Assembly: GCF_018780105.1 (NCBI RefSeq)
Contig: NZ_JADMKC010000005.1
Span: forward strand, 16,482 to 80,481
Source: Thiobacillus sp.
GTDB taxonomy: Bacteria > Pseudomonadota > Gammaproteobacteria > Burkholderiales > Thiobacillaceae
DNA length: 64,000 nt
Direction: 5' to 3'
Shown here in pieces: positions 61,934-64,000 of this stretch. The notes under the pieces are model-generated. The model was not told the DNA's origin. It did not search any database and was given only the letters and a program-made list of their open reading frames with translations. Both the position numbers and the translations under genes were made by a program. The stretch's first letter is position 1, and each line of letters starts with the position of its first letter.

Positions 61934-62895
61934 GTCAGGCCGGCATCGAAAAATCCGCCGCCCTGCTGCTTGCGCTGGGCGAAGAGGCAACCGCTGCGGT
62001 ATTCCGCTACCTGAGCCCGCTGGAAGTCAGCCGGCTGGGCACGGCGATGCGCGAGATGGGCGTGCTGCCGCGCGAGCGGGTCCGCCTGATTCTGCGCGAT
62101 TACGCCGCCGAGGCGGCCGAGCAGACCGGCTTCGCCGCCGATGCCGGCCGCTTTCTGGACGACAGCCTCAAGCTGGCCTGGAGCCCGGAACGCGCGCAGG
62201 CGGTGCTGCAGCGGCTGGGCGGGGCCGCCGGCCAGGCGCAGGAAAAGTTGGCCGGACGCGAGCCGGCGCAGATCGCCGGTCTGCTGGAAGAACAGCCGCC
62301 GCAACTGATCGCCATGGTGCTGGCACAACTGCCGCGCGATGTCGCCGCTGCGGTGCTGGATGCGCTGCCCGGCAGCGCGCGGGCCGGGACGCTGCTGAGT
62401 CTGGCGCACAGCGATGCGCCGCACCCCGACATGCTGACCGAACTGGACGAGTGGCTGGCCAGCCTCGATGCGCCGGCTTCCTCGCAGGGCGAAGCCGCCG
62501 TCGCCAGCCTGCTGGGGCAGATGAGCGAGGGCAGCGCCGCCGCCGCGCTGAGCCAGATCGATCACGACGATGCGGAGCTGGCCGCGCGCTTGAGGGTGCG
62601 GCATCTGGCGTTCGAGGATCTGGCGCGTCTGCCCGAGGCCAGCCGTAAAACCTTTTTGCGCAACGTCGGCGCGCGCGCGCTGCTGCTGGCCCTGAAAGGC
62701 AACGACGGCCGGGTGCTGGACGCGCTGGCTGCCGTGATGAGCCCGACCGCGGCGCAGCGCATGCGCGATGATCTGGATACGCTGGGCGCCGTGCCCGTGA
62801 CCGAGGTGCAGCTTGCGCAGGAGGAAGCCAGCGCTACCCTGCGACGGCTGGCGGCGGAGGGGGCGATCCTGCTCCCGCAAGAGGAGGCCGCATGA
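61930..62895 (+). CDS. fliG: Divergent FliG switch protein
   Basis: GIEKSAALLLALGE, ALKG, RDDL, LRRLAAEG; ATGA-coupled to fliF. Confidence 0.82.
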   Translation: MSQAGIEKSAALLLALGEEATAAVFRYLSPLEVSRLGTAMREMGVLPRERVRLILRDYAAEAAEQTGFAADAGRFLDDSLKLAWSPERAQAVLQRLGGAAGQAQEKLAGREPAQIAGLLEEQPPQLIAMVLAQLPRDVAAAVLDALPGSARAGTLLSLAHSDAPHPDMLTELDEWLASLDAPASSQGEAAVASLLGQMSEGSAAAALSQIDHDDAELAARLRVRHLAFEDLARLPEASRKTFLRNVGARALLLALKGNDGRVLDALAAVMSPTAAQRMRDDLDTLGAVPVTEVQLAQEEASATLRRLAAEGAILLPQEEAA

Positions 62896-63500
62896 ATACG
62901 CACGACGAACAGACGAGGCAGGAAGCCACCGCATTCGAGCAGTGGGAAGTGGTGGAACTGGCAGCATCCGCGGCGCAAGTGGCTACGGATACGCAGGCCG
63001 CCGAGCTGGCCAGACTGCGCGACACGGCCCGCGCCGAAGGCTATGCCGAAGGTCTGGCCGCCGGGCAAGCCAGAACCGAGCAGGCTTGCGCGCAGTTCAA
63101 GCAGCTGGCCGAAAGCTTCGACAACACGCTCGACAACCTCGACTTCCATCTGGCCGACATGGTGCTGGAACTGGCGCTCGACGTGGCGCGCCAGGTGATC
63201 GCCGGCGAACTGGCGGTGCGCCCGCAACACATTCTCGACGTGGTGAACCAGGCGCTGAAATTGATGGCCGAGTCGAGCCGCGGCGCCCGCCTGCTGCTCA
63301 ATCCGGAGGATGCCGCGCTGGTGCGGCCGCACCTCGATCAGGTGCTCGACAAGAACCGGCTGCGCATCGTCGAGGACGTGCGCATCGTGCGCGGCGGCTG
63401 CCTGATCGAAACCCCGCAGGGCGACCTCGACGCCACCCTGGTCTCGCGCTGGCGTCAGGTGGTGCAGGTGCTGGGGTCCAACCAGAACTGGCTTGAGTAA
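62892..63500 (+). CDS. fliH: FliH export ATPase regulator
   Basis: AEGYAEG, LNPEDA, RGGCLIETPQGDLDAT..RW. Confidence 0.85.
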   Translation: MNTHDEQTRQEATAFEQWEVVELAASAAQVATDTQAAELARLRDTARAEGYAEGLAAGQARTEQACAQFKQLAESFDNTLDNLDFHLADMVLELALDVARQVIAGELAVRPQHILDVVNQALKLMAESSRGARLLLNPEDAALVRPHLDQVLDKNRLRIVEDVRIVRGGCLIETPQGDLDATLVSRWRQVVQVLGSNQNWLE

Positions 63501-63513
63501 GCGGCAGAGGATG

Positions 63514-63808
63514 ATCCTAAAAACCGCAGTTGACCGCTTGTCACCTTGAGGAATGCCGCATGAATACTGAGTTTATTGCCTCCGATCACGTTCACTATCT
63601 GGGTGAGTCCGCTACGCACCCGCTGGCACGCCCGCTCGTGCGCCTGCCTTTGTCCCCGCGAGGGGGAGGCCGGATTCGTAAAGCCGCTGAAGCGGCAACG
63701 AATCCGCTCTCGCGCCTCCTTGCGGGCCCCGGCCCGCAGCGTCGTTGCTTCGCGGCAGACACCCGATCAGACGCACCATCGGGCGCGTCCAACTGCGGTT
63801 TCTAGGAT
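63514..63808. mobile_element. 295-bp MITE with 19-bp TIRs and 4-bp target duplication
   Basis: ATCCTAAAAACCGCAGTTG (63514-63532) / CAACTGCGGTTTCTAGGAT (63790-63808), one mismatch; GATG on both sides (63510-63513, 63809-63812); no transposase. Confidence 0.85.
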
Positions 63809-63809
63809 G

Positions 63810-64000
63810 ATGGAACGCACCGTCCGTTTACGCGAATACCTGGCGGCGTGCCGGCGCGCCGTCAGCGGCGCCACGCCGATCTCCGGCAGCGGTCGCCTGA
63901 CCCGCGTGTCCGGCCTGGTGATGGAAGCGGTGGGCCTGCGCATGCCGGTGGGCAGCCAGTGCCAGATCCAGGTGCCGGGCGGGCAGAACATCGAAGCCGA
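63810..64000 (+). CDS. fliI: FliI export ATPase, N-terminus (truncated by window edge)
   Basis: MERTVRLREYL...SGRLTRVSGLVMEAVGLRMPVGSQCQI; follows fliH. Confidence 0.88.
   Translation, partial: MERTVRLREYLAACRRAVSGATPISGSGRLTRVSGLVMEAVGLRMPVGSQCQIQVPGGQNIEA

Follow-up and report, generated by a model that had tools for sequence, protein, structure and literature searches.

A miniature inverted-repeat element of an IS1380-like family on the start codon of fliI in a Thiobacillus flagellar gene cluster

The fliH-fliI junction and the element inserted in it

We analyzed a stretch of 64,000 nucleotides (hereafter the window) from a Thiobacillus sp. contig (NZ_JADMKC010000005.1, positions 16,482 to 80,481 of the forward strand), near the end of which a 291-bp miniature inverted-repeat transposable element (MITE) separates the flagellar genes fliH and fliI. 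Coordinates are window positions unless a contig or locus is named; G000 is the genome under study (a 3.3-Mb assembly) and the other G numbers are genomes of relatives. Genes were called with a codon log-odds caller trained on the genome under study. The fliH gene (62892-63500, + strand; 202 aa) was identified in the list of open reading frames (ORFs) and by its Pfam match (PF02108 FliH, E 5.6e-38), and its stop codon, TAA, lies at 63498-63500 (+). The 5' end of fliI occupies 63810-64000 (+) and continues past the end of the window; the complete ORF recovered from the genome is intact and encodes 465 aa, with the Pfam domains ATP-synt_ab and T3SS_ATPase_C and a high codon log-odds score. The native start of fliI is probably the ATG at 63810-63812 (MERTV...), which agrees with the FliI start of the relatives, M-[D/E]-R-[T/I]-V, and an in-frame alternative ATG is present at 63807-63809.

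The MITE core (CCT...AGG, 63516-63806, + strand) carries no transposase gene, and the ORF within it has no Pfam match. It begins with the left terminal inverted repeat CCTAAAAACCGCAGTTGACCGC (63516-63537, +) and ends with the right one, GCGTCCAACTGCGGTTTCTAGG (63785-63806, +), the latter including both the terminal AGG and the stop codon of the ORF, TAG (63803-63805). The 22-bp inverted ends, CCTAAAAACCGCAGTTGACCGC and CCTAGAAACCGCAGTTGGACGC, match at 19 of 22 positions, and the repeat finder returned inverted arms of 27 nt (63511-63537 and 63785-63811) that are 85% complementary. On each side of the core stands a copy of the pentamer ATGAT (63511-63515 and 63807-63811), the whole junction reading, from the end of fliH, GAG-TAA-gcggcagagg-ATGAT-(CCTAAAAACCGCAGTTGACCGC ... 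GCGTCCAACTGCGGTTTCTAGG)-ATGAT-GGAACGC. The ATG of the left pentamer opens a mini-ORF of 12 codons that extends into the element (63511-63549, +). The right pentamer provides the AT of the ATG that matches the FliI start of relatives, which bears out an earlier note, made from the sequence alone, in placing an insertion on the fliI start codon. The inverted repeats, the internal hairpin, the 81-codon ORF and the fliH stop described in that note were likewise all found in place, using the sequence, the ORF list and the repeat finder.

The boundaries had been parsed differently in the earlier note, as a 4-bp duplication, GATG, around ATCCT...AGGAT. This parse is possible because the pentamer is nearly palindromic, but the pattern of the family, the partner insertion sequence (IS) described below and an empty site all indicate a 5-bp duplication, ATGAT, around the core CCT...AGG. 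After adding loci from relatives, we could orient 55 complete copies of the element at 52 distinct sites. Perfect 5-bp direct repeats were present in 27 of the 55, and 15 more matched at four of the five positions. The flanks of other copies read ATGAT, TTGAA, TTTAA, ATCAT, ATTAT or ATAAT; among the 27 perfect duplications the T at position 2 and the A at position 4 were invariant and positions 1 and 5 were A or T, giving the consensus W-T-N-A-W. Autonomous IS copies produce the same 5-bp duplication as the MITE. For another copy of the genome under study, G000:C37:205048-205281, whose flanks joined through a single ATGAT read CCTACATGATCGAAATT, the exact empty site ACATGATCG is present in the sister species G022 and G071. 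From this exact empty site and the duplications of the family, the pre-insertion fliI site can therefore be reconstructed as GAGG-ATGAT-GGAACGC. The 5-bp parse predicts GAGGATGATGGAACGC once 296 bp are removed, and the reconstructed empty fliH-fliI junction would be GAGGATGATGG. Both in-frame ATGs are already in this reconstructed site, and the in-frame ATG that the earlier note counted as an extra one would not be a gain of the insertion.

The fliI frame is open back to 63576 within the element (63576-64000, +). Automatic annotation could falsely extend FliI into the element (from a TTG start, with ~78 extra residues) or call a spurious ORF of 91 aa at 63530-63805. The same risk applies to other copies, where downstream genes may be extended into the element or spurious ORFs of 62-127 codons called inside it.

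A genus-wide family and its IS1380-like partner

The genome under study contains 12 copies of the element, the fliI copy included. Ten of them are ~234 bp long, among them a diverged one at C29:84003, and a second 291-bp copy, at C45:2648-2938, is 92% identical to the fliI copy. In the first search each of the 24 same-genus genomes gave a match, and a single weak match was the only one returned from genomes representing 16 further families in the order. The copies are mosaic, with 75-80% identity between copies over the left ~100 bp and 90-98% over the right ~135 bp. Its length, within the limit of ~600 bp usual for MITEs, the lack of a transposase, the inverted ends, the fixed-length duplication, the dispersed copies and the presence or absence of the element among relatives all agree with its identification as a MITE. 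The case in which no empty allele exists and the inverted repeats occur nowhere else can be set aside: further copies are present in the same genome and in same-genus genomes, and empty alleles were found in relatives, both as compact fliH-fliI junctions and as the exact empty site of the C37:205048 copy.

An autonomous IS with the same inverted repeats was found in a same-genus genome (G003) and in many other bacteria, not in the genome under study. In G003 (locus L086, positions 1310-2957) it is an element of 1,648 bp with the ends CCTAAAAATCTCAGTTGAC and CCTAAAAACCGCAGTT and the duplication ATGAA. Its transposase, a DDE enzyme of 516 aa, passed the Pfam models DDE_Tnp_1 and DDE_Tnp_1_4 (53.1 bits for the latter, with a cut-off of 34.7). 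The best NCBIfam match of this transposase was NF033539 (IS1380), with 146.7 bits and an alignment covering positions 8-415 of the 419 in the profile; the second-best family reached 28.8 bits. Relatives of the transposase occur widely, among others in Betaproteobacteria and Nitrospira. Those IS relatives for which both ends were located have the form CCTAAAAAC...GTTTTTAGG and span 1,622-1,657 bp, with duplications such as TTGAA, ATAAT, ATAAA, TTCAA and ATGAA around them. The MITE and these IS1380-like elements of ~1.65 kb (1.62-1.65 kb) share the ends CCTAAAAACCGCAGTTG...

The IS1380 family, in the ISfinder description, has ends starting with CC and a target duplication of 4-5 bp, and the inverted repeat of ISEcp1 begins with CCTAGA. 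The elements described here resemble ISEcp1, IS1247 and IS1380 in their ends beginning with CC, in their A/T-rich 5-bp duplication and in the best family match of the partner transposase. They differ in that the element at fliI is 291 bp long without a transposase, and in that the partner transposase belongs to a distant branch (146.7 versus 180 bits, the family cut-off); in addition, an outward promoter like that of ISEcp1 was not found in a scan of the MITE consensus. Judging from its ends and its duplications, the MITE is best described as non-autonomous and derived from a distant lineage of the IS1380 type, and we infer that it was mobilized in trans by an IS1380-like DDE transposase. Searches of the genome under study with the end sequences, with the NF033539 profile and by tblastn with the L086 transposase recovered no autonomous copy. 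Because no such IS is left in this genome, the fliI copy is probably a fossil. Literature searches on IS1380-derived MITEs, on MITEs of Thiobacillus and on the end sequences returned nothing, the one candidate paper dealing with an IS1182-derived MITE; neither the MITE family nor its IS1380-like partner appears to have been described in the searchable literature.

The copies are concentrated at operon junctions. The W-T-N-A-W target is A/T-rich and, in a GC-rich genome, such pentamers include the stop and start signals TAATG, TGATG and ATGA, which probably accounts for the junction preference. In co-directional gene contexts, 33 copies are oriented as the fliI copy (30 after dropping orthologous sites) versus 9 reversed (p about 0.001). 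This bias could result from selection, or from a bias tied to the direction of replication. The downstream start lies at most 18 nt from the right end in 24 of the 33 forward copies, and the upstream stop is frequently inside the left duplication.

We compared the fliH-fliI junction in 30 species of the genus. It is compact in 22 of them, mostly with a one-base overlap of the two genes (TAATG, TGATG, TAGTG), and in the three closest relatives, whose FliH is 86-88% identical, it reads TAA/TAG-gcc-ATG. In eight species, including the one under study, an insert of 160-310 bp lies precisely between the stop codon of fliH and the ATG of fliI; the occupied junctions of other species include L058, L060, L064, L067, L068 and L074. 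The inserts have at least three types of ends: the MITE type described here, a CCTGGGAACCCCGGTTGACCGC type (with the duplication ATAAT in L068) and a CCTAAAATCCCTGAACCACAGAG type. In the three occupied relatives with gene-called flanks (L067, L068 and L074), fliI is intact. By a crude count, a W-T-N-A-W pentamer is present at ~370 co-directional junctions of the genome under study. Compared with a naive expectation of ~2% per junction per genome, the 8 occupied fliH-fliI junctions out of 30 correspond to about a tenfold excess, a figure weakened by shared ancestry among some of them. This junction appears to be a hot spot or a site at which insertions are preferentially retained.

Consequences for the expression of fliI

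According to the earlier note, the right end of the element supplies a replacement ribosome-binding site, with a new AGGA as Shine-Dalgarno (SD) sequence; this AGGA would be functional, would take over from the displaced native site and would tune fliI. AGGA indeed stands 2 nt upstream of the ATG at 63810, its duplex with the anti-SD was calculated at -4.0 kcal/mol, and other copies share this AGGA-NN-ATG arrangement, as does the fliI junction in further species, in the form AGGATAATG. However, AGGA was already part of the reconstructed GAGG-ATGAT site, where the native GAGGA occupied the same position with a stronger duplex (-5.8 kcal/mol), so that nothing would have been replaced. The last three bases of the element, AGG, are identical to the bases preceding the target and simply recreate the AGG of the former GAGG; the context of fliI from -3 onward is therefore unchanged (AGGATGATGG, carried by the right end of the element). 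Whereas SD sequences usually stand 5-9 nt from the start codon, the spacing is here 2 nt to the ATG at 63810 and 0 nt to the one at 63807. The region from -15 to -1 is moreover predicted to be paired (unpaired probability near 0 in the occupied state), because the two ends of the element form a duplex predicted at -33.6 kcal/mol, in which AGGA pairs with the left inverted repeat. The downstream ATG abuts the AGG, with zero spacing, in 11 of the 33 forward copies in co-directional contexts, and for one of these, at a WrbA-like gene, the abutting start is confirmed by orthologues; as a general rule, then, the end of the element cannot act as a conventional SD. Finally, both ends of the element finish with TAGG, so that the orientation bias is not predicted by a role of the right end in ribosome binding. 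We consider it unlikely that the element provides a replacement site, and the predicted energies suggest that the AGGA at fliI is at best a weakened copy of the earlier one.

The frame of 81 codons (63560-63805, +), present in the ORF list, begins at an ATG conserved in the family and ends with the TAG of the right inverted repeat, and it is preceded by GAGGAA, as the earlier note had pointed out when describing an ORF with its own ribosome-binding site. We found no protein-coding signature in it: there was no Pfam match, variability at the three codon positions was flat (0.10/0.14/0.11) and codon log-odds were negative in all frames. The 81-codon frame is not a gene. Its openness is nevertheless widespread, since in 39 of the 55 copies the frame starting at the conserved ATG (core position 45) stays open until the right-end TAG or until a stop within the duplication, and it is maintained in variants of 279, 291, 348 and 429 bp, the extra modules being multiples of 3. 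At fliI its stop (63803-63805) ends 1 nt before the downstream ATG.

These features are compatible with a translational relay, in which ribosomes leaving fliH would restart at the ATG of 63511 or of 63560, cross the element, melt its stem, stop at the TAG and reinitiate at fliI, the element being compatible with operons in one orientation. Such a relay would fit the open frame and the modules in multiples of 3, the predominance of forward copies (30 versus 9) and the 11 forward copies in which the abutting ATG leaves no room for SD spacing. It would also fit the composition of the consensus, in which all three reverse-strand frames contain stops and two forward-strand frames are open; the forward strand is also rich in C (C/G = 1.33) and, if untranslated, would resemble a Rho entry site. 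When substitutions were shuffled, new stops were fewer than expected in the 63560 frame (2 versus 7.6, P about 0.014). On the other hand, the other two frames were likewise depleted in stops (9 versus 14.1 and 6 versus 10.1, i.e., 0.59-0.64 of the expectation) and the excess depletion of the 63560 frame was not significant. The second frame is equally open in the consensus, an SD precedes the internal ATG in only a minority of copies, and codon periodicity is lacking. An intact ORF is only weakly associated with forward orientation in an operon (p = 0.04 or 0.13), and open frames of 60-80 codons arise by chance ~20% of the time at this GC content. Selection for the mere openness of the frame is possible, but a relay, as far as can be judged from these sequence patterns, seems rather improbable, if the least so of the alternatives considered here.

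A wider version of the same idea, a MITE family built for life in operons, whose duplication regenerates the upstream stop and the downstream start and whose maintained frame relays coupling across the element, appears unlikely to us. If true, it would mean that translational coupling is relayed instead of broken, and that the repeated capture of the fliH-fliI junction by at least three element types reflects selection on the FliH:FliI expression ratio.

The opposite outcome would be a polar or inactivating insertion, the element blocking translation or transcription of fliI in a flagellar cluster that is silent or decaying. The predicted sequestration of the start region points in this direction, as do the presence of two MITE copies in one cluster (at fliH-fliI and at fliQ-fliR) and the existence in the genus of a second, paralogous FliH locus, which might relax the constraint. 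However, each of the four genes fliI, fliH, fliQ and fliR is intact and matches its Pfam models over the full length, and the codon score of fliI is gene-like. The consensus scan detected neither a sigma-70 promoter nor an intrinsic terminator in the element. Moreover, seven other species retain insertions at the same junction, with fliI intact in the three that were gene-called. Loss of fliI function is thus quite improbable.

We favor, with a probability of roughly 85%, the reading that a 291-bp MITE of a genus-wide IS1380-like family inserted on the start codon of fliI and left both genes intact, a tolerated, near-neutral event and not the adaptive gift of a ribosome-binding site. The element entered a pentamer, ATGAT, whose last two bases were the AT of the fliI start codon, and the staggered 5-bp duplication left the fliH stop and its spacer complete on the left and the fliI start, ATGATG-GAA..., complete on the right. 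In the fliH-fliI transcript, the paired ends would bury AGGA and the start region, making the entry of free 30S subunits worse than before, and the expression of fliI would require the stem to be opened by ribosomes or by a helicase activity. Expression of fliI has probably been retained but altered, most likely reduced, with a looser tie to fliH. It is plausible, as the earlier note proposed, that the insertion tunes or uncouples fliI rather than abolishing its expression; the indirect evidence for this is the intact state of fliI and the presence of insertions at the same junction in seven further species.

Several observations weigh against this reading. A purely neutral view accounts neither for the 30:9 orientation bias, nor for the excess of occupied fliH-fliI junctions, nor for the location of three of the 12 copies at flagellar gene junctions, which is far above the share of flagellar genes. 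Two pattern scans of metagenomes found no same-species empty fliH-fliI allele, and the spacer of the nearest relatives differs (TAG-gcc-ATG), the pre-insertion fliI sequence being reconstructed rather than observed. The score of the L086 transposase is under the NCBIfam IS1380 cut-off of 180, and the direction of the change in fliI expression is drawn from folding and SD energetics only.

Comparable situations are known from other miniature elements. The Correia elements of Neisseria (NEMIS/CREE) are likewise small inverted-repeat elements located near or between genes and co-transcribed with them. Their two ends form a long stem in the mRNA, as predicted here, and they can alter the expression of neighboring genes. 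They differ by their unrelated sequence and their TA target duplication; in addition, promoters, an integration host factor site and RNase III cleavage have been experimentally shown for them, whereas our consensus scan found no sigma-70 promoter. The ERIC/IRU sequences and related intergenic repeats of enterobacteria and Yersinia are also miniature insertions within operons, with other ends, sizes and hosts. The effects of ERIC/IRU-type elements on flanking mRNA are reportedly orientation-dependent, and some copies are said to overlap stop or start codons; for the MITE described here, the orientation bias is a bare count (30:9).

The fliI copy illustrates how a transposon can occupy overlaps of stop and start codons, the tightest spots of operons, and spare both genes, by duplicating the A/T-rich pentamer that holds these signals. 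The genus offers dozens of natural experiments in which coupling is interrupted by 234-430 bp, for instance occupied versus empty fliH-fliI junctions in sister species.

Internal structure and other flagellar copies

The interior of the element contains a hairpin, GGATTCGT..GCCGCT-GA-AGCGGC..ACGAATCC, at 63672-63705, with an outer stem (63672-63679 paired with 63698-63705) and an inner one (63683-63688 paired with 63691-63696). This strong hairpin, noted earlier as part of the element, does exist, but it belongs to a separate mini-repeat of 57 bp (63653-63709, +) nested in the element. Two copies in the genome contain the mini-repeat, and the ten copies of ~234 bp lack it. Two 348-bp elements of relatives exceed the 234-bp form by 114 bp (2 x 57), and the L068 element, at the fliI junction of a relative, carries another stem variant. 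Solo mini-repeats were found in the genome at C51 ~76068-76123 and C14 ~185553-185608, with conserved flanks and loop and different self-complementary stems. The 57-bp module looks like a small repeat family of its own, either solo or nested, with the flanks CCCGCRAGGGGNAGGCC ... GCTCT, the loop region AAAGNCGCTGAAGCGNCAA and freely covarying stems. Some copies of the element in relatives reach 334-429 bp (L089, L146 and L148) through nested inserts other than this module, e.g., a tandem GGATGTGGCGTCCTCGCGCAATAT duplication together with a further hairpin unit in L089.

A second internal hairpin, GCGGGC-CCCG-GCCCGC (63722-63737, +), is conserved in the family. Among 35 copies, both partners of three of its stem pairs have changed (in 9, 2 and 4 copies), and single-side changes were not observed; there must therefore be some structural constraint on the family, at the DNA or RNA level. 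These compensatory changes, together with the stability of the fold of the whole element (-143.8 kcal/mol, z = -3.6), could suggest a conserved cis-regulatory leader or a small RNA gene of the flagellar operon instead of mobile DNA. We ruled out this interpretation, whose probability is negligible: the sequence is absent from 22 of 30 orthologous junctions, it occupies 52 unrelated sites with target duplications, and its ends are common to transposase-bearing ISs. Rfam gave no match for the element either, a permissive threshold returning only noise (E > 2).

The motif CGCTACGCAYYCGMTKGCACG, at core positions ~95-125 (window ~63610-63640), is kept even in the subfamilies that have diverged most, and better than the sequence adjoining the inverted repeats. 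Inspection by eye led us to reject a sigma-54 interpretation of the conserved motif TGGCACG, since its GC element is 3 nt out of register and GG is lacking in diverged copies.

The diverged copy of C29 (G000:C29:84003-84236, i.e., locus L019 1382-1615) is located ~3.7 kb beyond the end of the window, in the same flagellar cluster and in reverse orientation. It lies between the stop of fliQ (Pfam Bac_export_3) and the start of fliR (Bac_export_1), whose ATG is 8 nt past the element. A third flagellar copy, G000:C37:304597-304830, lies between flgJ and the stop of flgI, the TAA of which is within the left duplication TTTAA. Nearly every genome of the genus also contains a second, distant FliH-like gene (~30-39% identity), found here at G000:C37:276919-277389, and the genus accordingly carries two FliH-containing export systems.

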